Source: Escherichia phage LQ5. From it: a stretch of 64,000 nucleotides of DNA. A program made the position numbers and the translations under genes. The notes beneath the pieces are model-generated. The model did not search any database. It saw nothing but the letters and a program-made list of their open reading frames with translations, and was not told the origin of the DNA. The DNA lies in the sequence record OR677401, one strand, 5' to 3'. The first letter of the stretch is position 1. Every line of letters starts with the position of its first letter. Below, piece by piece: positions 8,491 to 61,577 of the stretch.

Positions 8491-8674
8491 CCCTAAAAAT
8501 AAAGCGGAAATTATTCGACACTGGACTGAAACACGAGTAACTAAATGCCCTATAAAAAGTCAACACAACACCGATAAATGGTATATTGGTGAATATGTTG
8601 AGTATACTTTTATAGATAAAAATAAACGTAAACAGCATGTAGAAGAATATTGCTTAAAGGTGCAATGGTTATGA
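8462..8674 (+). CDS. hypothetical protein
   Basis: ORF 70 aa overlapping macro gene end. Confidence 0.45.
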   Translation: MKAHYPHPFDPKNKAEIIRHWTETRVTKCPIKSQHNTDKWYIGEYVEYTFIDKNKRKQHVEEYCLKVQWL

Positions 8675-8844
8675 GTCTGAGTAAAGAACAGAAAGATAAA
8701 TTGTTTGAGCTTATCCATGAGCTTATGGAACTCAACATAGAATGTGAATTTGATAACTCTCTGGATTGGGATTGGAGAGGTGGTGAAGAGGATGAGTTTT
8801 CTAAAAAGGAAAATGAATTAATTGCTTATGTAAATAGTCTTTAA
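8671..8844 (+). CDS. hypothetical acidic protein
   Basis: ATGA overlap; 57 aa. Confidence 0.5.
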   Translation: MSLSKEQKDKLFELIHELMELNIECEFDNSLDWDWRGGEEDEFSKKENELIAYVNSL

Positions 8845-8853
8845 GAAGGTAAT

Positions 8854-9426
8854 ATGGCTCAACTTTATTTTCATTATGCGGCGATGAATTCCGGGAAAAC
8901 CGCTTCATTGCTAACGGCAGCTCATAACTACAAAGAACGTGGTATGGGCGTACTCCTTTTAAAGCCTGCGATAGACAATAGAGAATCAAGCCATAGCATT
9001 TCGTCTCGTATAGGGATTAGTCAAGAGGCTAATGCCGTGACTCCGGATATGGACCTATACGAGTTCTATCGTTGGGCTGAATCTCAAAAAGATATCCACT
9101 GCGTATTTGTGGATGAAGCACAGTTCTTAGAACCTGCACAGATAAAACAACTGGCAAAGATAGTAGACAATTATAATGTTCCGGTTATGTGCTATGGGCT
9201 AAGAACTGATTTTCAGGGTAAACTGTTTCCTGGCTCTGCTGAATTACTCGCTACGGCAGATAAACTCGTTGAGTACAAAGGTGTGTGCCATTGTGGCCGT
9301 AAAGCTACTATGACTGCTAGGGTCCAGGATGGTATCGCAATTAAGGACGGCGCCCAAGTTTCTATAGGTGGCAACGATTCTTACGTGTCATTGTGCAGGA
9401 AGCACTGGATAGAAATAACGAGTTGA
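8854..9426 (+). CDS. tk: thymidine kinase
   Basis: AAMNSGKTASLL P-loop and CHCGRKA zinc motif; collinear with T4 Tk. Confidence 0.95.
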   Translation: MAQLYFHYAAMNSGKTASLLTAAHNYKERGMGVLLLKPAIDNRESSHSISSRIGISQEANAVTPDMDLYEFYRWAESQKDIHCVFVDEAQFLEPAQIKQLAKIVDNYNVPVMCYGLRTDFQGKLFPGSAELLATADKLVEYKGVCHCGRKATMTARVQDGIAIKDGAQVSIGGNDSYVSLCRKHWIEITS

Positions 9427-9433
9427 GGGTATT

Positions 9434-9712
9434 ATGGACCTAAATTCAAAGATTTTAATTCTAGCGTTCGCTGTGGCTATTTCTTATATTGTTCTTTCGC
9501 CTATCATGGATGATGTGGCTTACAAAAGAGAGATAGAGGTTGTAGCAGCGACGTATAATGCTAATAATAAAGAATGTCCTAATAAAAATGGGATGGATTT
9601 AATTAAAGCGCATTATATGCTTTCCATTACCTCGCCTATACAGAGGAATTGGGTTGAATATAATTTTAACGACGTGTTCTATTCTTATTGTCGTAAGCTT
9701 AAAAAGCTATAA
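9434..9712 (+). CDS. hypothetical membrane protein
   Basis: N-terminal hydrophobic helix ILILAFAVAISYIVLSPI. Confidence 0.6.
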   Translation: MDLNSKILILAFAVAISYIVLSPIMDDVAYKREIEVVAATYNANNKECPNKNGMDLIKAHYMLSITSPIQRNWVEYNFNDVFYSYCRKLKKL

Positions 9713-9715
9713 ATA
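9708..9715 (+). promoter_or_regulatory. possible late promoter TATAAATA
   Basis: exact TATAAATA about 90 nt upstream of the rI-like gene. Confidence 0.35.
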
Positions 9716-9804
9716 ATAATACTAACCGTAGAGCTTTAGCTTTTGGTAATCGCTATCGGTTAAGGCCGAAAGGCAAATAGTATAAAACAACAAAGGACTT
9801 TTGT

Positions 9805-10098
9805 ATGGGTATTTTCCGTACAGCGGCTTGTATCCTTATGGCGGGATGTTTAAGCCCTACAGTTTCACTAGCAAATGGTGCCAATGATAAATTGATGGAT
9901 GCATTTGCTAGTAGTGCGATGCCTGTTTATGCGCAAATGAGTAGACCCAGCGTAAAGGCCTCCGAAGACTATTGGGCCTATGTTACGGCTTCCTGGAAGA
10001 TTTCAAGTTGTCGGACTATAGAAGCGTGTTCAATTGAAGGTCGGGCCATCGGAGAGCGTTATGTAAAACTAATGAAGGTGGAAGATGAAGTTCAATGA
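9805..10098 (+). CDS. rI: lysis-inhibition regulator RI-like (signal-anchored periplasmic protein)
   Basis: 97 aa, N-terminal signal; C-terminal CSIEGRAIGERYVKLMKVE resembles T4 RI as recalled; position next to tk. Confidence 0.5.
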   Translation: MGIFRTAACILMAGCLSPTVSLANGANDKLMDAFASSAMPVYAQMSRPSVKASEDYWAYVTASWKISSCRTIEACSIEGRAIGERYVKLMKVEDEVQ

Positions 10099-10468
10099 TT
10101 TCGTACCCAGTCGAGGGTCTGAAGTGGATTCTTATATTGGTTGGCTACTGGTTTCTTTAGCCTATTTTAAGTCAGCCCATTTAGAAACCAAAAGCTATGC
10201 AAGACACAAAGCGTATGACTTCTATTATGTAGAAGTTCAAGGACCGCTGGACCAATTTAGTGAGCAATATCTTGGATTCAGTGGCAAAGAATATAAAGCA
10301 TCATTACCGTCTGCTTCAGACTTGCCTAAGGACCCGGTAGATTTTCTTGACGAGCTTCTTAAAGCATCTGATAAAATCTATGATACCCTTCCTAAGGCCA
10401 TCCAGTCGACTTTGGACGATATCACTGGCGTCTTTTACCAGACTAAGTATTTGCTGACGTTAGAATAA
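10085..10468 (+). CDS. hypothetical protein
   Basis: ORF 127 aa followed by terminator. Confidence 0.6.
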   Translation: MKFNDFVPSRGSEVDSYIGWLLVSLAYFKSAHLETKSYARHKAYDFYYVEVQGPLDQFSEQYLGFSGKEYKASLPSASDLPKDPVDFLDELLKASDKIYDTLPKAIQSTLDDITGVFYQTKYLLTLE

Positions 10469-10472
10469 TCAA

Positions 10473-10500
10473 AGGTCTCACTTCGGTGGGACCTTTTTTC
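10473..10500 (+). terminator. rho-independent terminator
   Basis: stem ggtctcac/gtgggacc (one G-U), loop ttcg, T-tract. Confidence 0.75.
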
Positions 10501-10508
10501 GTTTAGGT

Positions 10509-10537
10509 GTTTACATCCTCTAGGAACATGATACTAT
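10509..10537 (+). promoter_or_regulatory. T4-type early promoter
   Basis: GTTTAC ... GATACTATA GACCTATCAA. Confidence 0.65.
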
Positions 10538-10565
10538 AGACCTATCAACTAATGAGGAGAACAGT

Positions 10566-10802
10566 ATGAAACTTACAAGTACTACGGTTTCATTAGAATA
10601 TGAAATCAACGGTCGTATCCTTGAGATTAAGATATTCGACGACCGAAGTATCTTCGCTGATTATCGAGGATACAGAATTCGTCTAGAAAAGGACGAGCTC
10701 AAGGAACCGTGGCTCCTTAAAGACACATTAAAGGGTTGTGGATGTAAACTGAAGACTACCCAAGCCCAAGAATTAATTTCTACTATCAACAAATACTGGT
10801 GA
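10566..10802 (+). CDS. hypothetical protein
   Basis: GAGGAGAA before ATG. Confidence 0.6.
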   Translation: MKLTSTTVSLEYEINGRILEIKIFDDRSIFADYRGYRIRLEKDELKEPWLLKDTLKGCGCKLKTTQAQELISTINKYW

Positions 10803-10806
10803 TATT

Positions 10807-10989
10807 ATGTTAACTACTGAACAGATTGAACAAATCCTTAAACTGGCTACTGCTATTGAACGTGATTCTTATGATAGTGCAGTAGAACATTGCGAAGGCT
10901 ATTCATATTCCGCAATAGAGCAGTGTAAACGAGATTTGGATAACTCTAAAGCGGCATTGGTTGAGTATCTTAATGAGTTGAAAGCGTAA
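10807..10989 (+). CDS. hypothetical protein
   Basis: ORF 60 aa. Confidence 0.5.
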   Translation: MLTTEQIEQILKLATAIERDSYDSAVEHCEGYSYSAIEQCKRDLDNSKAALVEYLNELKA

Positions 10990-25907: not shown

Positions 25908-26762
25908 ATGAAATACATTACATACCTGACAATATATTCCGGGACTAAGCTTCCACCGTTTTATATAGGGTCCACTACTTTAGAGAAGCATTTAAAAGGA
26001 TACCATGGGAGCGTCCTTTCTAAAGCATATAAAGAAATCTATAACAAGGAGCTTTTAGAGCATCCTGAATTATTTGACTCATGTATTGTAAGTGAACACC
26101 CTACAAGAGAAGAGGCTTTAGAAGCTGAAAGAATGTACCAGTTAAGAACCGATGCGGCCCAAAATCCTCTATTCTTTAATATGGCTGTCGCAGCTCCTAA
26201 AGGATTCTTTGGGCTTTCGCTACCTAAAGAGCAACACCCTCTTTACGGCTCTCATAATGCTAAAGGATATATTCATTCCTATAATCCTGTTACATTAGAA
26301 CAAACCTTTGCACCTACAGTCCCCGAAGGATACGTAGAAGGTCGTTCTCCTAATTATAAAGCGTCTAGTCATAATAAGGGTAAGAAGTGGTATAACAATG
26401 GCGTTGATAAAGGATTATTTGTAGAAGGAAAACAACCTGAATCTTGGGTCCTTGGCAGTTTTCTAACCGATGAACATAAGAAAAACTTGAAAAAGACCGA
26501 TGGGATATATGACCCTGATATTCAAAAAGAATTAAAAGAGCTTTGGATTTCTACTGGATTTTTGCCACCGTATAAATTTAGAGAAATAGCTTTAGCTAAA
26601 GGTTTTATGGATGGTAATTATCACAATTTGGTTTATAAAATTTTTAAGCCTACAGTTACAATTACTAGACCTAAGAAAATCTGGGCTAATGACGGCATAA
26701 AAAGCTTTATGATTTCTGAGATAGAATTTAATAGTGAAATACATTATAAAGGTAGATTATGA
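25908..26762 (+). CDS. GIY-YIG-like putative homing endonuclease
   Basis: YITYLTIYSGTKLPPFYIGST N-terminus; AT-rich; sits where T4 carries alpha-glucosyltransferase. Confidence 0.4.
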   Translation: MKYITYLTIYSGTKLPPFYIGSTTLEKHLKGYHGSVLSKAYKEIYNKELLEHPELFDSCIVSEHPTREEALEAERMYQLRTDAAQNPLFFNMAVAAPKGFFGLSLPKEQHPLYGSHNAKGYIHSYNPVTLEQTFAPTVPEGYVEGRSPNYKASSHNKGKKWYNNGVDKGLFVEGKQPESWVLGSFLTDEHKKNLKKTDGIYDPDIQKELKELWISTGFLPPYKFREIALAKGFMDGNYHNLVYKIFKPTVTITRPKKIWANDGIKSFMISEIEFNSEIHYKGRL

Positions 26763-33862: not shown

Positions 33863-36574
33863 ATGCAAGAATTCTATTTGACAGTCGAACAAATCGGTGA
33901 TAATATTCTCGAACGTTACATCGATAAAAATGGTAACGAACGTAGTCGTGAAGTTCCATACAAGCCTACAATGTTTATGCATGCTAATCCAGAGCAAGCC
34001 GTAAAATACATTGATATCTATGGTAAGGGTTGTGTTAAGAAAGAATTCGACTCTATGCGTGATGCATCCCAATGGATGAAACGTATGGATGATATGGGCC
34101 TCGAAGCCCTGGGTATGGACGACTATAAATTAGCCTATTTGTCTGATACCTATCGTAAAGAAATCAAATATGATTCTTCTAAGATTCGTATTGCTAACTT
34201 CGACATCGAGGTAACATCTCCTGATGGATTCCCTGAACCAGCTCAGGCTAAACATCCTATCGATGCCATTACCCACTACGACTCGATTGACGATAAATTC
34301 TATGTATTCGACCTTTTAGTTTCGCCTTATGGTACTGTTGAAGAGTGGTCGATTAAAATCGCTGAGAAACTCCAAGACGAAGGTGGTGACGAAGTTCCAC
34401 AGGAAATCATTGACAAAATCGTTTATCTTCCGTTTAATTCTGAAGAAGAAATGATGCTTGAGTACTTGAATTTCTGGCAACAGAAAACTCCTGTGATTTT
34501 GACTGGATGGAACGTTGAGTCGTTTGACGTACCGTACGTTTATAACCGTCTGAAAAATCTGTTCGGTGAGAACACTGCTAAGCGATTAAGCCCACATCGT
34601 AAAACTCGTGTTAAAGTTATTGAGAACATGTACGGTGCTCGTGAAATCATTACATTGTTCGGTATCTCTGTTCTGGATTATATCGACCTCTATAAAAAAT
34701 TCAGCTTCACCAACCAGCCTTCTTATTCTCTGGATTATGTTTCTGAATATGAATTGAAAGTGGGTAAGTTGAAATATGATGGTCCAATCTCTAAGTTACG
34801 TGAGACGAACCACCAACGATATATTTCCTATAACATTATCGACGTATATCGTGTAGTGCAGATTGATATGAAGCGTCAGTTCATTCTTCTGAGTTTGGAC
34901 ATGGGTTATTATGCCAAGATGCAGATTCAGTCGGTGTTCAGTCCAATTAAGACTTGGGACGCTATTATCTTTAATAGCCTTAAAGAGCAAGGCAAGGTAA
35001 TTCCACAAGCTCGTTCACACGTGGTTCAACCTTATCCCGGTGCTTTCGTTAAGGAACCTATTCCTAACGCTTACAAATATGTAATGAGTTTCGACCTTAC
35101 ATCTCTGTACCCGAGTATCATTCGACAAGTGAATATAAGCCCAGAGACCATCGCAGGGACATTCGCTAACGCACCGATACATGAATATATTGCCGGAACA
35201 GCTCCGCGTCCTAGCGACGTCTACAGTTGCTCTCCTAACGGCATGATGTACTATAAAGACCGCGATGGTGTGATTCCTACAGAAATCACCAAGGTGTTCT
35301 TACAACGTAAAGAACATAAAGGTTATATGCTTGCAGCTCAACGTAATGGTGAGTTAATTAAAGAAGCATTAGAAAATCCTAATCTCTCGGTTGATAGTCC
35401 ACTGGATATCGATTATCGTTTTGACTTCTCTGACGAAATCAAAGCCAAGATTAAAACGCTGTCAGCACCTTCTTTAAGAGAAATGTTGTTCAGAGCTGAA
35501 CGTACCGAAGTTGCAGGTATGACTGCTCAGATTAACCGTAAGTTGCTTATCAACTCCCTTTATGGTGCACTTGGTAACGTATGGTTCCGTTATTACGACC
35601 TCAGGAACGCAACTGCAATCACATTGTTTGGTCAAATGGCCCTCCAATGGATTGAACGTAAGGTTAACGAATATCTGAATAGCGTGTGTAAGACTGAAAA
35701 CCAGAAGTTCGTGCTCTATGGTGATACTGACTCCATTTATGTTAAGGCGGATGCAATCATCAATAAAGTAGGCGAAGACAAATTCCGTGATACTAACCAC
35801 TGGGTTGACTTCTTAGATAAATTTGCACGTGAACGTATGGAACCGGCTATTGATGCAGGCTTCCGTGAGATGTGCGAGTACATGAACAACAAACAGCACT
35901 TGATGTTCATGGACCGAGAAGCTATCGCAGGTCCTCCACTTGGTTCTAAAGGTCTTGGTGGATTCTGGACAGGTAAGAAACGTTATGCACTGAACGTTTG
36001 GGACATGGAAGGTACTCGTTATGCCGAACCGCACTTGAAAATCATGGGTCTCGAAACCCAGAAATCAAGTACACCTAAAGCAGTTCAGAAAGCTCTGAAA
36101 GAATGTATCCGTCGTATGCTTCAGGAAGGCGAGGCCTCTTTGCAAGAATATTTCAAACAGTTTAATAAGGAATTTAACGAACTAAACTATGTAAGCATTG
36201 CAGCAGTATCCAGTGCTAACAACATCGAGAAATATAATGAAGGTGGATTCCCGGGTTCTAAATGTCCATACCACATCAAAGGTTGCTTAGCTTACATGCG
36301 TGCTTCTGCAGGTGATTTGACTATGCCTCGTATCGTTGATGGTGAAAAGGTATATGTACTGCCACTTAAAGAAGGCAACCCGTTTGGTGAAGCTTGTATG
36401 GCATGGCCGTCAGGTATTGAACTTCCGGTTCAGATTCGTGACCAAGTCCTCCGTTGGATGGACTACAACGTACTGTTCCAAAAGACCTTTATCAAACCTC
36501 TGACCGGTTTTACTGAGTCTGCTAAAATCGACTACGAGAAAAAAGCAACATTATTTGATATGTTCGACTTTTAA
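33863..36574 (+). CDS. 43: DNA polymerase gp43 (family B)
   Basis: exo motifs FDIEV, YNIIDV; pol motifs DLTSLYPS, YGDTDS; very close to RB69 gp43 as recalled; start trimmed to MQEFYLT. Confidence 0.97.
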   Translation: MQEFYLTVEQIGDNILERYIDKNGNERSREVPYKPTMFMHANPEQAVKYIDIYGKGCVKKEFDSMRDASQWMKRMDDMGLEALGMDDYKLAYLSDTYRKEIKYDSSKIRIANFDIEVTSPDGFPEPAQAKHPIDAITHYDSIDDKFYVFDLLVSPYGTVEEWSIKIAEKLQDEGGDEVPQEIIDKIVYLPFNSEEEMMLEYLNFWQQKTPVILTGWNVESFDVPYVYNRLKNLFGENTAKRLSPHRKTRVKVIENMYGAREIITLFGISVLDYIDLYKKFSFTNQPSYSLDYVSEYELKVGKLKYDGPISKLRETNHQRYISYNIIDVYRVVQIDMKRQFILLSLDMGYYAKMQIQSVFSPIKTWDAIIFNSLKEQGKVIPQARSHVVQPYPGAFVKEPIPNAYKYVMSFDLTSLYPSIIRQVNISPETIAGTFANAPIHEYIAGTAPRPSDVYSCSPNGMMYYKDRDGVIPTEITKVFLQRKEHKGYMLAAQRNGELIKEALENPNLSVDSPLDIDYRFDFSDEIKAKIKTLSAPSLREMLFRAERTEVAGMTAQINRKLLINSLYGALGNVWFRYYDLRNATAITLFGQMALQWIERKVNEYLNSVCKTENQKFVLYGDTDSIYVKADAIINKVGEDKFRDTNHWVDFLDKFARERMEPAIDAGFREMCEYMNNKQHLMFMDREAIAGPPLGSKGLGGFWTGKKRYALNVWDMEGTRYAEPHLKIMGLETQKSSTPKAVQKALKECIRRMLQEGEASLQEYFKQFNKEFNELNYVSIAAVSSANNIEKYNEGGFPGSKCPYHIKGCLAYMRASAGDLTMPRIVDGEKVYVLPLKEGNPFGEACMAWPSGIELPVQIRDQVLRWMDYNVLFQKTFIKPLTGFTESAKIDYEKKATLFDMFDF

Positions 36575-36636: not shown

Positions 36637-36873
36637 ATGGAAGCTTTAATCGTTAGTGCTGGTGTTTTAGGATTCGGTTCTCTGGTTATTATGTTCATCG
36701 GTTACTTTTTACCATGGATTCTGGCTCTTCTGCGAGGCACTCGTAGTAATGTCGGAATTTTCTTCCTTAATCTCCTGTTAGGCTGGACGATGATTGGTTG
36801 GGTAGTGGCTTTAATCTGGGCTATCGTCGCTGAACGTAAATCAAACGCACAAATCATTATTGTTAAGCAATGA
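36637..36873 (+). CDS. imm: superinfection-immunity (Imm)-like small membrane protein
   Basis: two TM helices with GIFFLNLLLGWTMIGWVVALIWAI; position between genes 43 and 42 as for T4 imm. Confidence 0.4.
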   Translation: MEALIVSAGVLGFGSLVIMFIGYFLPWILALLRGTRSNVGIFFLNLLLGWTMIGWVVALIWAIVAERKSNAQIIIVKQ

Positions 36874-37014: not shown

Positions 37015-37515
37015 ATGAAAAAGTTAATTATCGCAATGAGTATGCTCCTATCAGGTTGTGCGGTCCAATATGGTGATGCAGTTTCGGCTGATGAAGTTGG
37101 TAAAGCTCGTATCGCAGCTGAACAGAAACAATTCGATGGCGAAATGAAATTCCGTGCAGGTTCTGGACTTGTGTACACCCGAGCCAATAATCAATGTGGT
37201 AATAACTGTGCAAAATATGCTCAAAGGGAAATCGAATTCCAACGTGAACAAGAGTCTAAGCGTGAAGCGGTACTAGCCAAACACCAGGCAGAAATGAAGC
37301 GTCAAGATGATTTGTACAAAAAGCAGAAACTGTATGCGATGTGCGTAAACCATATCAATCTACAGATTTCCATCCACGAGGCTCGTTATTACGAAATGCT
37401 CGAAACCGAGAGCTTCGGTAAAGCTCGTGATTATAAGAAACAAATCGATAAGCTCAAGACCAAAGCACCGGCGGCAATAAAACAGTGTATTGAAATCGGT
37501 AAAGATAAGATTTAA
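37015..37515 (+). CDS. lipoprotein
   Basis: lipobox-like LLSGC after signal MKKLIIAMSM. Confidence 0.6.
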   Translation: MKKLIIAMSMLLSGCAVQYGDAVSADEVGKARIAAEQKQFDGEMKFRAGSGLVYTRANNQCGNNCAKYAQREIEFQREQESKREAVLAKHQAEMKRQDDLYKKQKLYAMCVNHINLQISIHEARYYEMLETESFGKARDYKKQIDKLKTKAPAAIKQCIEIGKDKI

Positions 37516-37575
37516 GCAATACCAATTTATTAAAAATAGTGTATAATGTACCTACATTCACTTGAGGAACAGATA

Positions 37576-39249
37576 ATGAAAAAGGTTGTTATTTTAGGCG
37601 CGGGTCTTGGCTCACGGTTGTATCCAATTACCAACGAAATCCCGAAGGTACTGGTTAACTACAAACAACATACTGTATTAAAACATTTGTATGATTTGTA
37701 TAGTAATCAATCAGATGAAATTATTCTGGTTATTCACAGCAAATTTAACGACCTCGTTAAAGGCTATATTAAATCCATTAACATGATTAATAGTGATAAG
37801 CCCAAATTCACTATTCGTAACGTTGATGTTGCCAATGGTTCGGCTCATGCTATCGATTGCATTGCCGAAGATATCATTGGGCACAATGTCTTGTTTAACT
37901 GGTGTGATATTATTCCTGAAGGTCATAAAGTTGAGTGGGATAACGACTACTGTTATACCTATGGGACTGACTGTCGTTTTACATTTGAAGAACCGTACTT
38001 GCGTGAAATTGGTACCGGTGGTGGTGTGGTTGGTTTGTATCAGGTTGCTAATTGGACAGGCTTCAACCGTTCTAATTATGGCGAAGACCTTGCTGATAAC
38101 CTGGATTCGATGGTCCATTTGACCGAACGTAAGCTGGACTTTGTAGTTGATGTCGGTGACAAATTGAAACTGGCTAAGGCCCATGAAGATTCTGAAATTA
38201 ACCGTGAATTTAATAAATTAGAGTTCACTGAGAATCTAGCTATTAAAGTACCTACAAACGAATTAGGTAAAGAAATCCAATCTAAAGAAATCAATTGGTA
38301 CAATTCTATTGATTCTGAATTCGTTCCTAGCATTGTAGACTTTGCTCCAGGTGAATTCATTAAAATGGAACGTATCTTTGGTCGAACCATGGCAGATGCC
38401 TACCGGTTTATGTCTAAAGAAACTAAAGTCCTAATGGTTTATAAGGTTATTAGTGCATTACGTTCGTTCGGTGGAACTATCGATAATCCGTCCGATGAGC
38501 AATGGTATTCTGATGTTAAGAAAGAAGTATTGGACAAGGTCCTTATTCGTAATGCTTCTATTGCCGGATTGATTGAAGGCTTTGCTCCACAGGGTATTAC
38601 CCATGTTAACGACTTCAAGGTAGGCGACCCAGAAAAACTTCTTCGTCACGCCTTAGAAATTCTGTCTGAACATAAAGAACCGTACCAACTTATTCATGGC
38701 GACCCGCACTACAGTAATATTATGTTGTCGGACGAAGGTAATATTAAAATCATCGACCCACGTGGTTATTTTGGTAATAGTTCTAAAGGCCCTGCGATTT
38801 ATGATGAAGCTAAGGTGCTTTATTCTATCGATGGTTATGACAAATTTAACTCTGACCCTCTATGGGGCGGATTAACTCGTAACGGAACTCGTGTATTCGT
38901 TGATATTGAAAAGGTTATGCCTTTAGATGATATTCCGATGTGTACATTTAAGCACAAGCTCTGGATTGCCGTTATTTGGATGGCATTGGCAGGTTACTTT
39001 AAAAATAACCCTCTGAAAGCTCTGGGCGCTTATTACAATGGGCTATATCAACTGAGTGTGCTGCTGAAGCGGCATCCTCGTAAGCGTAAGCTTATCACAG
39101 GTGAATTCGTTGATGAAGTTCGCGACCCTATCACGGCTCAAATTATCACTCGTTGTCCTGATAAGTGGGTTTTGCTTGACCAAGAAACTGGTGTAAAATA
39201 TAAACCTACAGGTTCTACCGAACTCCACAAACAATGGAAGAAAATTTAA
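37576..39249 (+). CDS. bifunctional nucleotidyltransferase / kinase (predicted sugar-1-phosphate nucleotidyltransferase fused to APH/choline-kinase-like kinase)
   Basis: N-terminus ILGAGLGSRLYPITNEIPKVL matches the NTP-transferase glycine loop; C-terminus LIHGDPHYSNIML ... IIDPRGY matches the HGD..N / D-x-x-G kinase catalytic and metal loops. Confidence 0.65.
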   Translation: MKKVVILGAGLGSRLYPITNEIPKVLVNYKQHTVLKHLYDLYSNQSDEIILVIHSKFNDLVKGYIKSINMINSDKPKFTIRNVDVANGSAHAIDCIAEDIIGHNVLFNWCDIIPEGHKVEWDNDYCYTYGTDCRFTFEEPYLREIGTGGGVVGLYQVANWTGFNRSNYGEDLADNLDSMVHLTERKLDFVVDVGDKLKLAKAHEDSEINREFNKLEFTENLAIKVPTNELGKEIQSKEINWYNSIDSEFVPSIVDFAPGEFIKMERIFGRTMADAYRFMSKETKVLMVYKVISALRSFGGTIDNPSDEQWYSDVKKEVLDKVLIRNASIAGLIEGFAPQGITHVNDFKVGDPEKLLRHALEILSEHKEPYQLIHGDPHYSNIMLSDEGNIKIIDPRGYFGNSSKGPAIYDEAKVLYSIDGYDKFNSDPLWGGLTRNGTRVFVDIEKVMPLDDIPMCTFKHKLWIAVIWMALAGYFKNNPLKALGAYYNGLYQLSVLLKRHPRKRKLITGEFVDEVRDPITAQIITRCPDKWVLLDQETGVKYKPTGSTELHKQWKKI

Positions 39250-39608
39250 TGCATCTGTGTTTTGATATCGATAATACCATTACTCACTGGCAAGATGACC
39301 GTGATTACGAAAACTTTAAACCGGACACCGAAATGGTGTCCATGATTAATAAGCTTTATGATGAAGGGTACGAGATTACCTTGTTCACTGCCCGTGGTAT
39401 GACTTCATGCGGCCCGGGTCGAATCTTGGTTGAAGTAGTTCCTGCATTAGTTAAGAACCTTGAAAAGATTGGATTGAAATATCACAATCTGCTTACACAT
39501 AAGCCGAGTTATACTTTTATCATCGATGACCGAGCAATCCGTCCTGACCACTTTAAAGAAATGGTTCGTGAAGGAACTCTTGAAACCTATAAGGCATATC
39601 ATCCGTGA
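39234..39608 (+). CDS. HAD-superfamily phosphatase
   Basis: motif I CFDIDNTIT (DxDxT), motif IV FIIDD; alternative start at 39249. Confidence 0.6.
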   Translation: MEENLMHLCFDIDNTITHWQDDRDYENFKPDTEMVSMINKLYDEGYEITLFTARGMTSCGPGRILVEVVPALVKNLEKIGLKYHNLLTHKPSYTFIIDDRAIRPDHFKEMVREGTLETYKAYHP

Positions 39609-40141
39609 AACCAAAAATCATTGTTATCGACGGCCCGGATAATTCCGGGAAGTCTACTTTAATTGAATCACTTTTATCTGATAAGAAATATCGTCTTATC
39701 GATTTCCCTAAAAAGATTAACGGCAAATGCATTTCATTAGGGACTGATAATGACAAGGCTTTAGTCGAGACGTTGTATAAGTTTTTAGACCCTAATTTTG
39801 TCTACATCTTAGACCGTGGGTATCCTAGTAATATTGTTTACTCTGGATTCCTTCGTGGTGAAATGGACCCTTATGTAGAATTAGCAGATTGGATTGATTT
39901 CAAAAAAGAATTCAATATCATTGAGATTATTTTAACCCGTAATCCATTAGATGAAGACTTTGAAGATGACCTTATTAAATTAACCAAAGATGAGTTCAAC
40001 CTAACTATCCAGCAATATGAAACATGTTTTGAAAACGTGTTTAAAATCTTAAATCACGACGGCCATAATAACTTGCTTAACGTCGATATGGTAGAATTAA
40101 AACGTCTGAATGAATATATTGAAAATAAGGTGAATAAATGA
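39605..40141 (+). CDS. P-loop (thymidylate-kinase-like) nucleotide kinase
   Basis: IVIDGPDNSGKSTL Walker A; LDRGY resembles the Tmk DRY motif. Confidence 0.6.
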   Translation: MKPKIIVIDGPDNSGKSTLIESLLSDKKYRLIDFPKKINGKCISLGTDNDKALVETLYKFLDPNFVYILDRGYPSNIVYSGFLRGEMDPYVELADWIDFKKEFNIIEIILTRNPLDEDFEDDLIKLTKDEFNLTIQQYETCFENVFKILNHDGHNNLLNVDMVELKRLNEYIENKVNK

Positions 40142-40836
40142 AACACATTACCGCTGTTAGTTTTGAAAACGCGTTTAAGCAAATGAACGAAGAAATCCTG
40201 GAAGCTCCACAGTTTGCAGTTGATTCTCGTATCGGCCGTTGTTATGAAATTGGTTCTGCTTCGGTAGAAGTACTGGATGCAAGCACCTATAAATTCACCG
40301 ACCCTCGTATTAATCGTATCAACTATGATTATGCCGAATCCTTTTGGAAGTTTATGATTTCTGGTGGTACTGACGCTGCTGAAGCATTTAAGGAATATCC
40401 TAATGTTGCTAAGTTCATTGATAAGCCGAAAAGTGACGTATTGCCTGCAAACTTCAACACTTTCTATGGACCTCGAATTGTGGCCCAACTCCCGGCCCTA
40501 CTTAAAGAGCTTAAAGAGAAGCCTAACTCAAGACGAGTTGTGTTCCAAATTCTCCAAGAACAAGACCAGGCCCTCCTTGATTCTGACGAATCCTTAGAAT
40601 ACCCATGTACCGATTCGGTGACATATTATATTCGTGATGGACGTCTGTATGCACATACTCATATGCGTTCACAGAACTGTGCTATCGTTATGCAGCTGGA
40701 TTTCTATCTGCAGGGTAAACTGATGGCCTTTATTGCTGAACAGTGTGGTGTTGGTCTGGGTACGTATTCCCATACTATGGTTAGTGCACACGTATTTGAA
40801 CGTGATTTTGACTACGTTCGAGGATTCCTGAAATGA
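40138..40836 (+). CDS. 42: thymidylate-synthase-family pyrimidine hydroxymethylase (dCMP hydroxymethylase-like, gp42 slot)
   Basis: catalytic EYPCTDS cysteine; MRSQNCAIVMQLD aligns by eye with T4 gp42 MRSNDVVFGFRND, Asp at the TS Asn specificity position. Confidence 0.65.
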   Translation: MKHITAVSFENAFKQMNEEILEAPQFAVDSRIGRCYEIGSASVEVLDASTYKFTDPRINRINYDYAESFWKFMISGGTDAAEAFKEYPNVAKFIDKPKSDVLPANFNTFYGPRIVAQLPALLKELKEKPNSRRVVFQILQEQDQALLDSDESLEYPCTDSVTYYIRDGRLYAHTHMRSQNCAIVMQLDFYLQGKLMAFIAEQCGVGLGTYSHTMVSAHVFERDFDYVRGFLK

Positions 40837-41726
40837 GTTTGTTTATCGTTCCTATTTTCAGTATGCGTAGTTACGAAACAGGTGAATATGCCGTCCTTAA
40901 GGACGGTAATTTTCAACTCCATTTAAACCGTGCTTGCCCAGGTGATTATCTGGCTTATCCTAGAAATTCGAGCGATATCAAAGAATGCATTGAATTATTT
41001 CCTGAACTGAATTTTGTACCGCTTTGGTATAAAGAAAATGCTTATGAAACTCGTAAACATTTTTGGTCTGAAAACGAGTTCGTTGTTGATTCGTTAATCG
41101 AATACTATGACTGCTCAGGATTGGTAACCGATATCACAGGTTATGATGGCACTCAGACTGTACAATTCAACTTTAACATTACAATGGACCCTGAAGTTCC
41201 TCGTTATTATATCGACGAGTTTATTGATACCGACGTGTCCTCAGTTGAACGTTCGATTTATACCACAGTCCTGAATCAATGTCAGAAAGACGTCCTGGTG
41301 TCACGAGGTGCGTCCTCTGATAAGATTTTTGTAGACCAAAAGGTAATTAATCCGGCAGTAATTGAGCGTTACTCTGAAGGCCTAGCGCCTATTAAAATTG
41401 ATGGTATTTTCCACCCATTCCGTATTTCGGATAAGTGTTATCAATTCGAAAGAGTTGTAGACCAAGCTGCGGCTGAAGGTGCTCGTCTTTATATCACCGA
41501 CCCGAATGATTCATTTAAGCGTGAAGACTATCGTCCTGATGTAGAGATTATTAAATTCAAACCGAGTAAGGTTGAATATTATCAGATTCTGAAATCAAGA
41601 CCTCATATCATTTATCATGAGAATCCCGGTTTAGTATTCCATCCTGGTCTGGCTGAATTCATTTATTTCGGTGCCCATATCCATTCTGAGCACGAAATGC
41701 CAAGTTATGAGGACGTGGTCCTTTAA
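40833..41726 (+). CDS. hypothetical protein in the beta-glucosyltransferase slot (candidate DNA sugar transferase)
   Basis: 297-aa ORF ATGA-coupled to hydroxymethylase; no recognisable T4 beta-gt similarity. Confidence 0.35.
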   Translation: MSLFIVPIFSMRSYETGEYAVLKDGNFQLHLNRACPGDYLAYPRNSSDIKECIELFPELNFVPLWYKENAYETRKHFWSENEFVVDSLIEYYDCSGLVTDITGYDGTQTVQFNFNITMDPEVPRYYIDEFIDTDVSSVERSIYTTVLNQCQKDVLVSRGASSDKIFVDQKVINPAVIERYSEGLAPIKIDGIFHPFRISDKCYQFERVVDQAAAEGARLYITDPNDSFKREDYRPDVEIIKFKPSKVEYYQILKSRPHIIYHENPGLVFHPGLAEFIYFGAHIHSEHEMPSYEDVVL

Positions 41727-41803
41727 CGCTGTAAATGTGAAGTGATATAATTACCCTATCTTAAAACGTGAGTAAAATATAATGATGCCTATGGAAAAAT
41801 ATA

Positions 41804-42976
41804 ATGTCTGATTTAAAATCCCGTTTGATTAAAGCTTCTACTTCTAAAATGACTGCCGACCTGACCAAATCTAAATTGTTTAATGGTCGTGACGAAGTTC
41901 CTACTCGTATCCCTATGCTGAATATTGCATTAGGCGGTGCGTTGAATGCAGGCTTACAATCAGGTTTGACAATCTTTGCTGCTCCATCTAAACACTTTAA
42001 AACGTTGTTTGGACTTACCATGGTTGCGGCATATATGAAGAAATATCCAGACGCAATTTGTTTGTTCTACGACTCTGAGTTTGGTGCTTCAGAATCTTAT
42101 TTCCGTTCGATGGGTGTTGATTTAGAACGTGTGGTTCATACACCAATCCAGTCAGTCGAACAGCTTAAAGTTGATATGACCAACCAATTAGAAGAAATTA
42201 CTCGTGGCGAAAAGGTTATTATCTTTATCGACTCTATCGGTAACACTGCTTCTAAGAAAGAAACCGAAGATGCTTTGAACGAGAAAGTTGTAGGTGATAT
42301 GACTCGTGCTAAATCACTGAAATCTCTGTTCCGTATCGTAACACCTTATCTGACCATCAAAGATATCCCTTGTGTAGCAATTAACCATACGGCTATGGAA
42401 ATTGGTGGAATGTACCCTAAAGAGATTATGGGTGGTGGTACTGGTATTCTGTACTCTGCTTCTACCGTGTTCTTTATCTCTAAACGTCAGGTTAAAGATG
42501 GTACTGAGCTCACTGGTTATGACTTCACACTGAAGGCCGAGAAATCTCGTACGGTTAAAGAGAAATCAACGTTCCCGATTACAGTGAACTTCGAAGGTGG
42601 TATCGACCCATTCAGTGGATTGCTTGAAATGGCTACTGATATCGGCTTTGTCGTGAAACCTAAAGCTGGTTGGTATAATCGTGCATTCCTTGACGAAACC
42701 ACAGGTGAAATGGTTCAAGAAGAAAAAGCATGGCGTGCTAAAGCTACCGATTGTGTCGAGTTCTGGGGACCGCTGTTTAAACATGCCCCGTTCCGTGAAG
42801 CAATCGAGAATAAGTATAAGCTCGGTGCAATTAATTCTATTAAAGAAGTTGACGATGCAGTGAACGACCTTATTAACTCTCGTGTCTCTAAGAACGTTGC
42901 TGTTAAATTAGGTGGTAATGCCCAAAGCGCCGCTGATATCGAAAACGATTTAGAAGAGATGGATTTAGATGACTGA
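41804..42976 (+). CDS. uvsX: recombinase UvsX (RecA-like)
   Basis: collinear with T4 UvsX as recalled (MSDLKSRLIKASTSK ... CLFYDSEFG ... ETEDALNEKVV.DMTRAK). Confidence 0.95.
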   Translation: MSDLKSRLIKASTSKMTADLTKSKLFNGRDEVPTRIPMLNIALGGALNAGLQSGLTIFAAPSKHFKTLFGLTMVAAYMKKYPDAICLFYDSEFGASESYFRSMGVDLERVVHTPIQSVEQLKVDMTNQLEEITRGEKVIIFIDSIGNTASKKETEDALNEKVVGDMTRAKSLKSLFRIVTPYLTIKDIPCVAINHTAMEIGGMYPKEIMGGGTGILYSASTVFFISKRQVKDGTELTGYDFTLKAEKSRTVKEKSTFPITVNFEGGIDPFSGLLEMATDIGFVVKPKAGWYNRAFLDETTGEMVQEEKAWRAKATDCVEFWGPLFKHAPFREAIENKYKLGAINSIKEVDDAVNDLINSRVSKNVAVKLGGNAQSAADIENDLEEMDLDD

Positions 42977-48378: not shown

Positions 48379-49035
48379 ATGAATTACGAAAAAATATACC
48401 AGGAATTAATATCTAAAGGAAAATTAAGAGGTTCTAAGCGGTCTTTATCATATTATACGGAAGAACACCATGTTATACCTAGATGTATGAATGGTTCTGA
48501 TGATAAAAACAATTTAGTTGCTTTATTGCCAAGAGAACACTTTGTAGCTCATAGGCTTTTAACAAAAATATATCCCGAAGTAAAAGGTCTACATTATGCT
48601 GTTAATTTAATGAGATATAATAAAGGAGTTAAATTAACTAGTAGAACTATAGCCACGTTAAGAGAAAATAACGCTAAAGCATTTTCAGGAAAAAATAACC
48701 CGATGTTTGGTAAACCTTCCTGGATTAGAGGGATGAAAACTCCTGAAGAAACTAAAGCCAAAATGCGCCTGGCTCATAAAGATAAAATTATATCTGATGA
48801 AGCCAAGGCCAATATGAGTAAAGCTAGAAAAGGAAGATTTAGTGGTAAAGATTCCCCTAGATATGGTTTACCGAATCCTAGGCGTGGAGAAATATGGAAT
48901 AGTTACGATATGCTTTACGAATTATGGGTTTACAATAATAAACCTAAACGCACCAAATTTAATAAAATAGCTGTTGATAATGGATATCCTGATATTTGTT
49001 ATCGACGAATGATAGAAAACTTTAATAGGAAATAA
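48379..49035 (+). CDS. HNH homing endonuclease with C-terminal DNA-binding repeats
   Basis: EEHHVIPRCMNGSDDKNNLVALLPREHFVAHRL HNH core; repeats NNPMFGK, TPEETKAKM, SDEAKANMSKARKG; AT-rich. Confidence 0.8.
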   Translation: MNYEKIYQELISKGKLRGSKRSLSYYTEEHHVIPRCMNGSDDKNNLVALLPREHFVAHRLLTKIYPEVKGLHYAVNLMRYNKGVKLTSRTIATLRENNAKAFSGKNNPMFGKPSWIRGMKTPEETKAKMRLAHKDKIISDEAKANMSKARKGRFSGKDSPRYGLPNPRRGEIWNSYDMLYELWVYNNKPKRTKFNKIAVDNGYPDICYRRMIENFNRK

Positions 49036-49039
49036 TATA

Positions 49040-49561
49040 ATGGCATTTTTTAACGAATGTAGTGGTTTGATTTCTGGTGTTGATAAAGCTGAGGAAGCTT
49101 ATTTTAATGCTCTGATTCATGAAGATAAAGACCCTCTGCAGGTTATGCTTGATATGCAGAAATCATTACAGGTCCGTTTGGCTACTGAAAAATCTGAATT
49201 TAACTCTAACCCCGATGAACTGGCTACTGCAGGTCAAGTTGTCGATTGGCTTCGCAACCAGAAAGATTATATTGATGACGAATTCCGTGAACTGTTGACT
49301 TCTCTTGGTGGCATGAGCAATGGCGAAAAAGATGCATCTGCAGTATGGAAGCCTTGGAAAGCTCAACATGCTGAACGTCGTGAAACCCTGATTAACGATT
49401 TGTCTCCTGAAGACCAGCTCGAAATTAAATTCGAAATGATTGATATTCTGCACTTTGTTCTGAATATGTTCCAAGGTCTTGGACTGACTGCTGAAGAAAT
49501 CTTTAAACTGTATTACCTGAAAAATGCCGAGAACTTTGCTCGCCAGGACCGAGGTTATTAA
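49040..49561 (+). CDS. 56: dCTPase/dUTPase gp56 (MazG-like)
   Basis: collinear with T4 gp56 as recalled (DPLQVMLDMQ ... DDEFRELLTSLG ... EIFKLYYLKNAENFARQDRGY). Confidence 0.9.
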   Translation: MAFFNECSGLISGVDKAEEAYFNALIHEDKDPLQVMLDMQKSLQVRLATEKSEFNSNPDELATAGQVVDWLRNQKDYIDDEFRELLTSLGGMSNGEKDASAVWKPWKAQHAERRETLINDLSPEDQLEIKFEMIDILHFVLNMFQGLGLTAEEIFKLYYLKNAENFARQDRGY

Positions 49562-61203: not shown

Positions 61204-61253
61204 GGGGTTTACAAAGACCTGTGGTTATGATAGGATTATCTAGAGGTGAGAAT

Positions 61254-61577
61254 ATGATTATGCAAGATAACAGTATAGTGAACACTGACAACCTGGCTCT
61301 ATCCTTTATGGAAACAGCCATACGAAATTGTAAGGACGAAGGAATAGTGACTACAAGCGGTAAGGGACTTGAATACCTTAAGGCTGTAAAATCTATTGCC
61401 TTAAAGATTAAAGATAACCAGGCGCTCTCTCCTGTGGTCCAGGAAAAGGTTTTAGAGATAATGTATCGCCATCGGGATCACAAGAGTACAATGGGTTCTA
61501 TGAGAAGAATTCTGGCTGAACTAGGTTCTACCAGAGAATATGTTCAACATGAGGTAGTTAAAAATGACAAACTTTAA
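61254..61577 (+). CDS. hypothetical protein
   Basis: GAGGTGAG before ATG 61254. Confidence 0.55.
   Translation: MIMQDNSIVNTDNLALSFMETAIRNCKDEGIVTTSGKGLEYLKAVKSIALKIKDNQALSPVVQEKVLEIMYRHRDHKSTMGSMRRILAELGSTREYVQHEVVKNDKL

Follow-up and report, generated by a model that had tools for sequence, protein, structure and literature searches.

Gene content of the locus

The DNA considered here is a window of 64,000 nucleotides from Escherichia phage LQ5 (sequence record OR677401), and our subject is an operon at positions 37576-41726 of this window, the products of which resemble enzymes of cytosine hypermodification. The window comes from a T4-like coliphage, a Dhakavirus of the JS98/QL01 type, and not from a member of the RB69 group (Mosigvirus), with which an initial annotation of the sequence drew a comparison: the region 37400-41800 shares 98.5% nucleotide identity with Escherichia phage QL01 and 95-98% with WG01, Bp7, MX01 and IME08. 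The operon consists of five co-directional open reading frames (ORFs) on the plus strand that follow one another without spacer, in accord with the five coupled genes described initially, and all four junctions are stop/start overlaps (TAATG, GTGA, ATGA and ATGA). From 5' to 3', the genes encode a fusion of a nucleotidyltransferase (NT) and a kinase (557 aa; 37576-39249), a HAD phosphatase (119 aa, or 124 aa from an alternative start at 39234; 39249-39608), a thymidylate-kinase-like P-loop kinase (178 aa; 39605-40141), a protein of the thymidylate synthase (TS) fold (232 aa; 40138-40836) and a 297-aa candidate glycosyltransferase (GT; 40833-41726). The domain assignments made in the initial annotation agree with Pfam, which recognizes NTP_transferase and APH kinase domains in the first protein, a weak HAD match in the second, a P-loop in the third and Thymidylat_synt in the fourth. 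All five proteins have full-length homologs in the region gp45-gp55 of phage RB69, and tblastn searches with the T4 glucosyltransferases alpha-gt and beta-gt found no significant match anywhere in the 64-kb window; both observations support the earlier idea of a cytosine sugar hypermodification that dispenses with the T4 glucosyltransferases.

The TS homolog and the modified base

The TS-fold protein (40138-40836; Thymidylat_synt E-value 4.8e-14) is the homolog of RB69 gp48, with which it shares 78% identity, as against 26% with T4 gp42 and 18% with E. coli ThyA. Its matches in the PDB are 9iqu, 9iqc and 9ir2 (E-value 1.5e-125), and 9iqu, like the entry 9iqw matched by the HAD phosphatase, shares the 9iq* deposit series with 9iqz, which is labelled as a phage HY126 glycosyltransferase. 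We aligned the window protein with RB69 gp48, T4 gp42 and E. coli ThyA using the ThyA numbering (alignment A1); the numbering of the ThyA sequence is consistent with the residues given in PMC13326640. The catalytic Cys146 is present in all four proteins, PCT of the window protein aligning with PCH of ThyA. The segment starting at R166 reads RSQNCAIVMQLD in the window protein, RSQNCAVVMQLD in RB69 gp48, RSNDVVFGFRND in T4 gp42 and RSCDVFLGLPFN in ThyA, and within it position 169 is Asn in the window protein and RB69 gp48 (RSQN in both) and Asp in T4 gp42 (RSND) and ThyA (RSCD), while position 177 is Asp in all but ThyA, which has Asn. Position 143 is Glu in the window protein and RB69 gp48, Asp in T4 gp42 and Leu in ThyA. 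The window protein therefore carries D169N, N177D and L143E, in agreement with the diagnostic signature of the synthases of 5-hydroxy-dCMP (5hodCMP), i.e., D169N together with N177D, which is associated with dCMP specificity, and L143D/E (PMC13326640).

The chemistry of such enzymes and of the DNA that they help to build has been established in related phages. Lee et al. (NAR 2026; PMC13326640) reported, using tandem mass spectrometry and nuclear magnetic resonance, an ether linkage between beta-D-Araf-(1-3)-alpha-D-Araf (Araf, arabinofuranose) and the oxygen of 5-hydroxycytosine in the DNA of RB69, and a tri-arabinosyl form in that of DLP3. In the same work RB69 gp48 and DLP3 gp80 were found to convert dCMP to 5-hydroxy-dCMP with bound flavin and with 18O taken from O2, and nine further D169N homologs that were tested all yielded 5-hydroxydeoxycytidine (5hodC). 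By every sequence criterion, the TS homolog of the window qualifies as a 5hodCMP synthase, with a predicted dependence on flavin and O2, and its D169N/N177D/L143E signature points to 5-hydroxycytosine, and not hydroxymethylcytosine (hmC), as the base.

Two other assignments of this protein were considered and excluded, viz., a dCMP hydroxymethylase of the gp42 type, on account of Asn at position 169 and the 26% identity to T4 gp42, and a canonical thymidylate synthase (ThyA), on account of Asp177 and of the NCBIfam TS models, all of which score below their cutoffs.

The initial annotation had taken the TS homolog for a hydroxymethylase and, with reference to arabinosyl-hmC in RB69, had proposed that hmC formed by a gp42-type enzyme is arabinosylated with UDP-arabinose, which a kinase and a pyrophosphorylase salvage from free arabinose. 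Such a scheme matches the 2018 description of RB69 (PMC6024577), and Table 1 of PMC13326640 keeps the wording 'Ara-5-P -> Ara -> Ara-1-P'. However, the window protein has Asn at the position of Asp169 in T4 gp42 and is far closer to RB69 gp48 than to T4 gp42; moreover, the RB69 assignment of 2018 has been explicitly revised, the DNA having been re-determined as arabinosyl-5-hydroxycytosine (PMC13326640). The salvage step is also at odds with the published route, which, as far as it is summarized in PMC13326640, leads to D-arabinofuranose in DNA and starts from D-arabinose-5-phosphate (Ara-5-P), proceeding via a 1,5-bisphosphate. We hence consider the combination of hmC with salvaged arabinose extremely improbable and take 5-hydroxycytosine as the base in what follows.

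Predicted enzymes of the sugar donor

The NT/kinase fusion (37576-39249) is the homolog of RB69 gp53:52, DLP3 gp82 and HY126 AfhE. Pfam locates an N-terminal NTP_transferase domain at residues 13-110 (E-value 2.5e-8) and a C-terminal APH domain at residues 356-427 (E-value 9e-6), and the protein matches PHROG 4098 with an E-value of 6e-269. It is colinear over its full length with RB69 gp53 (44% identity) and gp52 (41% identity), which represent a single gene split by a sequencing error, and it contains the motifs GAGLGSRLYPIT..PK and HGDPHYSN, corresponding to the patterns GxGxRLxPxT and HGDxxxxN, respectively. Its architecture is that of AfhE, i.e., a sugar-1-phosphate nucleotidyltransferase joined to an APH-like kinase; a search of the PDB found no solved structure of AfhE.

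The HAD phosphatase (39249-39608) is the homolog of RB69 gp51, with 62% identity, and of DLP3 gp81 and HY126 AfhF. Its Pfam matches are weak and its best NCBIfam match, the capsule biosynthesis phosphatase model TIGR01689, stays under its cutoff, but the protein matches PDB entries 9iqw (E-value 2.8e-53) and 1xpj (E-value 3e-12) and has the motifs DIDNT (DxDxT), FTAR, K and IIDD, as in phosphatases of the AfhF type.

The account of He et al. 2026 given in PMC13326640 describes the corresponding reactions in HY126: Ara-5-P, obtained from ribulose-5-phosphate by a phage isomerase, is converted to Araf-1,5-bisphosphate (Araf-1,5-P2) by the kinase domain of AfhE, the phosphatase AfhF turns this into Araf-1-phosphate (Araf-1-P), and the nucleotidyltransferase domain of AfhE forms UDP-Araf. 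By analogy, the NT/kinase fusion of the window is predicted to convert Ara-5-P to Araf-1,5-P2 and to form UDP-Araf from Araf-1-P and UTP, and the HAD phosphatase is predicted to catalyze the intervening step from Araf-1,5-P2 to Araf-1-P. The suggestion that the phage makes its own nucleotide-sugar donor is supported by the homology of both proteins to the donor enzymes of RB69 and HY126.

The candidate arabinosyltransferase

The 297-aa protein (40833-41726) is the homolog of RB69 gp47 and gp46, which are one split gene, and of DLP3 gp79 and Thanatos TH1_063 (7961-8863 of the Thanatos locus), with identities of 69% to gp47, 63% to gp46 and 51% to TH1_063. It was initially regarded as an orphan, but has 117 homologs (PHROG 3891), essentially all of them in T4-like phages or phage-like contigs, for example in Serratia phage 92A1, Acinetobacter phages Acj9, Acj61 and AbTZA1, Yersinia phage TG1 and Edwardsiella phage PEi20, and it appears to be a conserved candidate for the first arabinosyltransferase. 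There is no Pfam match, and a sequence search of the PDB gave chance-level matches only; a fold comparison assigns the protein to a compact version of the GT-B glycosyltransferase fold. Its gene lies directly downstream of the 5hodCMP synthase gene, with which it overlaps at ATGA, and its homology is to the family of arabinosyltransferase 1. The first of the RB69 arabinosyltransferases is proposed to be gp46:47, with gp3 acting as the second (PMC13326640), and by analogy the 297-aa protein is predicted to add the first alpha-D-arabinofuranose to the 5-hydroxyl of cytosine.

A different role could be argued from TH1_063, which made UDP-xylose from UTP and xylose-1-phosphate in vitro (PMC12838424). 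The 297-aa protein might likewise be a UDP-pentose pyrophosphorylase, with some other protein acting as the DNA glycosyltransferase, and neither PMC13326640 nor PMC12838424 demonstrates transferase activity for the family. A UDP-xylose pyrophosphorylase activity is, however, hard to square with a GT-B fold, and we regard this alternative as very unlikely; given that the window protein is 51% identical to TH1_063, the clash between activity and fold may call for a re-examination of the assay. We retain the 297-aa protein as a candidate arabinosyltransferase.

The P-loop kinase and gp56

The P-loop kinase (39605-40141) is the homolog of RB69 gp45 (38% identity), DLP3 gp78 and Thanatos TH1_064 (44% identity) and is 84% identical to its counterpart in phage Marfa. 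It matches PHROG 761 (E-value 3e-40) and contains the Walker A motif GPDNSGKST, but falls far under the cutoffs of the NCBIfam models for dTMP kinase and CMP kinase, and its matches to PDB sequences are at chance level. In Rhizobium phage RL38J1, a hexose-modifying phage, the 5hodCMP synthase likewise adjoins a kinase of the same type (PMC13326640, Table 1), and by this analogy the window kinase probably phosphorylates 5-hydroxy-dCMP.

Outside the operon, the window encodes the dCTPase/dUTPase gp56 (49040-49561, plus strand; Pfam dUTPase_2), which is 90% identical to RB69 gp56 over 173 aa and was correctly noted as retained in the initial annotation. In the established biology of T4, gp56 removes dCTP and supplies dCMP (PMC2993671).

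In the RefSeq records of QL01 and its relatives, the same genes bear the names of ordinary metabolic enzymes (thymidylate synthase, thymidylate kinase and phosphoheptose isomerase), and this annotation is what speaks for reading the locus as housekeeping metabolism. None of these names is reached at a curated NCBIfam cutoff: the kinase scores 19 bits against a dTMP kinase cutoff of 83, and the TS homolog scores 41-63 bits against thymidylate synthase cutoffs of 108-427. In addition, N177D predicts dCMP and not dUMP as the substrate, and the name phosphoheptose isomerase finds no support in the HAD gene, whose product has the fold of a phosphatase and not of an isomerase. The probability of the metabolic reading is practically negligible.

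Genes absent from the cluster

The cluster is smaller than that of RB69. In tblastn searches of the 64-kb window, RB69 gp55 (isomerase), gp50 (U32 family) and gp3 (transferase) gave nothing better than an E-value of 0.85, and the U32 protein of Marfa found no homolog in the window. A hidden Markov model of the 297-aa family detected a single copy in the window and no second transferase. Across 50,697 phage records no Dhakavirus copy of gp55 or gp3 is apparent, gp50 having been searched for in the window only: no gp3 match in an Escherichia, Shigella or 'Enterobacteria' phage is below 95% identity, and nearly all gp55 matches in Escherichia-type phages reach 90% or more, which is the pattern of Mosigviruses and so leaves no match to be attributed to a Dhakavirus. 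Thus, the locus represents neither a full, di-arabinosylating cluster of the Mosigvirus type nor a glucosyl-hmC system of the T4 type.

The positions at which the missing transferases would be expected hold other genes. The sole ORF in the interval between rIIA and gene 39, where gp3 resides in RB69 and other Mosigviruses, encodes a 118-aa DUF7367 protein (61221-61577, plus strand). As annotated initially, alpha-gt is missing between genes 55 and 47, where tblastn finds no match and where small ORFs and a homing endonuclease are located. This 284-aa endonuclease (25908-26762, plus strand; PHROG 10820/314) lies at the position of T4 alpha-gt and overlaps the start of gene 47, and a glycosyltransferase assignment was rejected for it. 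A second homing endonuclease, of the HNH/NUMOD3 type (218 aa; 48379-49035, plus strand), is found directly upstream of gene 56. No homing endonucleases are listed for JS98 and JS10 (Petrov et al. 2010, PMC2993671), and both endonucleases of the window are therefore taken as insertions specific to a sub-lineage.

Contrary to the initial annotation, the operon is not self-contained: it is without an Ara-5-P isomerase, and it relies on gp56, a dNMP/NDP kinase step and the polymerase, for which the genes lie outside it or in the host. E. coli, Klebsiella and Proteus all produce Ara-5-P for the synthesis of 3-deoxy-D-manno-octulosonic acid (Kdo), and as no phage isomerase gene was found, the host enzymes KdsD and GutQ presumably supply the D-arabinose-5-phosphate. 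In the cases published so far, the number of transferases tracks the number of arabinoses, with one GT in Thanatos (mono-arabinosyl), two in RB69 (di-arabinosyl) and three in DLP3 (tri-arabinosyl) (PMC13326640), so that the single transferase of the window predicts mono-arabinosyl-5-hydroxycytosine.

The U32 family deserves a separate comment. Peptidase_U32 proteins (Pfam E-value ~1e-11) occur in the arabinosylation clusters of RB69 (gp50; 8493-9662 of the RB69 locus, minus strand), Marfa (9787-10947 of the Marfa locus) and Thanatos. In Thanatos a chorismate mutase type II (CM_2; its 34.7 bits exceed the cutoff) comes directly after the U32 protein, the pair being TH1_065/TH1_066 (9428-10564 and 10561-10818 of the Thanatos locus). 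RB69 gp50 weakly resembles UbiU. The U32 protein RlhA, an O2-independent hydroxylase that uses prephenate, makes 5-hydroxycytidine in rRNA. Hydroxylation of this kind, without O2 and with prephenate, is likewise known from the U32 proteins UbiU, UbiV and TrhP (PMC6599085, PMC10990095), and gp50 itself has been named a 'sugar or heterocycle reductase' (PMC13326640). A pair of U32 protein and chorismate mutase could provide an anaerobic route to 5-hydroxycytosine. The window has no U32 gene, and its pathway would therefore depend on O2.

Proposed pathway

We consider it likely that the operon at 37576-41726 encodes, in minimal form, the arabinosyl-5-hydroxycytosine pathway known from T4-like phages. 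In this pathway, gp56 would convert dCTP to dCMP, and the TS-fold enzyme would hydroxylate C5 of dCMP with flavin and O2 to give 5-hydroxy-dCMP, as its homologs do. The P-loop kinase, for which this substrate is presumed, the phage dNMP kinase or both would then act on it, and the host NDP kinase would complete the synthesis of 5-hydroxy-dCTP, which gp43 would incorporate in place of dCTP. On the side of the sugar, host KdsD/GutQ presumably provide D-arabinose-5-phosphate, and three reactions known from homologs would follow: the C-terminal kinase domain of the NT/kinase fusion would phosphorylate C1 of arabinose-5-phosphate, the HAD phosphatase would strip the 5-phosphate and the N-terminal nucleotidyltransferase domain would form UDP-arabinofuranose. 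Finally, the 297-aa GT-B enzyme would move one alpha-Araf to O5 of cytosine, its activity, the level at which it acts (DNA or nucleotide) and the number of sugars being suppositions. The resulting modification would shield the DNA from restriction and CRISPR nucleases. Arabinose, the sugar favoured in the initial annotation, is the most likely one, as in RB69. PMC13326640 names eleven further groups, Dhakaviruses included, in which synteny 'strongly suggests' 5hodC biosynthesis; with the pathway and its presence in Dhakaviruses published in 2025-2026, the finding as such is already known.

Several points weigh against this proposal. We found no published chemical analysis of the virion DNA of a Dhakavirus, Marfavirus or Bragavirus. 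The first arabinosyl transfer has not been reconstituted, single GTs being inactive on 5-hydroxycytosine (5hoC) DNA, and for RB69 and DLP3 the authors leave undecided whether this transfer takes place on DNA or on the mononucleotide (PMC13326640); the UDP-xylose formed by TH1_063 adds to the doubt about the transferase. In RB69, a dNMP kinase of the gp1 type already phosphorylates 5hodCMP (PMC13326640), and the role assigned to the P-loop kinase is a tentative one. Beyond the window, the absence of the Ara-5-P isomerase (API) and of the second arabinosyltransferase (AraT2) is deduced from the host organisms and identity levels recorded for database matches and not from a scan of whole genomes. 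Lastly, the NT/kinase fusion is only 42-46% identical to that of each chemically verified arabinosylating phage and belongs to an outlying clade that also has no isomerase gene, so that the sugar or its precursor could differ.

The last point can be developed into an alternative in which 5-hydroxycytosine bears another pentose, or is served by another precursor route, and the divergent NT/kinase of the Dhaka/Marfa/Proteus phages leads to a different 5-O-glycosylcytosine. The NT/kinase of the window is 80% identical to that of Marfa and 71% identical to those of Proteus phages, well above its identity to the proteins of verified arabinosylators, and the kinase domains of RB69 and Thanatos are 55% identical to each other although these phages are far more distant overall; the Dhaka/Marfa/Proteus clade is without an arabinose-5-phosphate isomerase, and the 5hoC of Rhizobium phage RL38J1 bears hexoses (PMC13326640). 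Conversely, the transferase (63-69%) and the phosphatase (62%) of the window remain close to the RB69 proteins, and Ara-5-P is formed for Kdo synthesis in each of the hosts, E. coli, Klebsiella and Proteus; for these reasons a different sugar is rated as unlikely. The grouping of Dhakaviruses with the arabinosylation clusters (PMC13326640) also argues against it, and we keep to arabinose as the sugar.

Implications

Names given in RefSeq to these genes in Dhakaviruses (NC_028847, NC_031928, NC_019500 and others), i.e., thymidylate synthase, thymidylate kinase, phosphoheptose isomerase and hypothetical protein, are misleading, and the present analysis corrects the annotation for an entire genus of coliphages that are candidates for therapy. 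The predicted mono-arabinosyl-5-hydroxycytosine bears on resistance to restriction and CRISPR, on sensitivity to type IV systems, on nanopore basecalling and on cloning. Petrov et al. 2010 (PMC2993671) asked what JS98-type phages do without glucosyltransferases, and the operon offers an answer at the level of sequence. Discovery of the pathway itself belongs to the papers of 2025-2026. Among the four clusters compared here, the pathway has its smallest natural form in the window, with five genes, one transferase, no isomerase and no U32 protein, and this minimal set would be convenient for reconstitution and for finding out which of the accessory genes can be spared. Should a different sugar or precursor route turn out to be used, the DNA would contain a further natural base that is not yet described; at the least, the pathway would be a minimal one that depends on host KdsD/GutQ and strictly on O2.

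Genomic setting and the start of the operon

The operon occupies the slot between gene 43 and uvsX, as recognized initially: the gene for DNA polymerase gp43, ending at 36574, and imm (36637-36873) lie upstream, and uvsX (41804-42976) lies downstream. The corresponding slot of T4 contains imm.1, imm, 42, beta-gt and segA. An ORF of 166 aa (37015-37515, plus strand; PHROG 1754, function unknown) separates imm from the operon; it has a lipoprotein-type signal sequence, MKKLIIAMSMLLSGC, and may encode a superinfection-exclusion factor like the adjoining imm. In Thanatos, the lipobox protein TH1_058 occupies the equivalent position.

The first gene of the operon most likely begins at 37576, as annotated initially. 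Its longest ORF starts at 37546, but this start was rejected because its ATG falls within a TATAAT hexamer resembling a -10 element. In contrast, the ATG at 37576 is preceded at 6 nt by a GAGGAA Shine-Dalgarno sequence, and the PHROG match covers the longer ORF only from residue 11 onwards, in agreement with the downstream start. The putative start signals of the operon on the plus strand are TATAAT at 37542-37547 and the ribosome-binding site GAGGAA at 37564-37569, as judged from the sequence; a consensus promoter scan did not list this TATAAT, for want of a matching -35 hexamer. Promoter and terminator scans performed no better than shuffled controls and were not used as evidence.

Comparison with known systems

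The cluster of the Mosigviruses RB69 and HY126 (gp45-gp55 and gp3 in RB69, Afh genes in HY126) shares with the window the slot between the polymerase gene and uvsX, the five protein families, the signature of the TS homolog, the retention of gp56 and the absence of T4 glucosyltransferases. RB69 additionally has the gp55 isomerase, the gp50 U32 protein, gp49/gp54 and the second arabinosyltransferase gp3, none of which is present in the window. The order of genes also differs, the kinase gene being located between the HAD and TS genes in the window and after the GT gene in RB69, and the sugar-activation half shows 38-44% identity between the two phages whereas the flanking core genes show 84-90%. 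Klebsiella phage Marfa (Marfavirus) has the same gene order as the window, i.e., NT/kinase, HAD, kinase, TS and GT, and likewise no isomerase, but its kinase and TS genes are separated by a U32 gene and a 146-aa ORF precedes uvsX, both absent from the window. Shewanella phage Thanatos, in which cytosine is mono-pentosylated, encodes homologs of all five window proteins with identities of 44-71%, and its single GT of the same family directly follows the TS homolog, which makes it the published precedent for one GT and one arabinose. Thanatos differs from the window in the presence of a U32 protein and a chorismate mutase, in a longer HAD protein and in the location of the kinase gene after the GT gene.

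The glucosyl-hmC system of T4 (gp42, alpha-gt, beta-gt, gp56 and gp1) follows a shared logic of dCTP depletion, modification of dCMP by a TS-fold enzyme, incorporation by the polymerase and glycosylation by GT-B enzymes, and the window operon takes the place of gene 42 and beta-gt in the genome. The chemistry is distinct: T4 relies on folate-dependent hydroxymethylation, while the 5hoC pathway uses flavin and O2 for hydroxylation and attaches a pentofuranose via a C5-O ether. UDP-arabinose is not a normal metabolite of enterobacteria, and a phage that follows this route must therefore make the donor itself. The divergence of the modification proteins also departs from that of the genes around them. 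Between the window and RB69, the polymerase is 84% and UvsX 90% identical, whereas the modification proteins are 38-78% identical; between the window and Marfa, the polymerase is 69% identical, whereas the NT/kinase (80%), HAD phosphatase (84%), kinase (84%) and TS homolog (85%) are all more similar. Thus, the module is nearer to that of Marfa and farther from that of RB69 than the flanking core genes are, which indicates that it has moved between lineages and genera.

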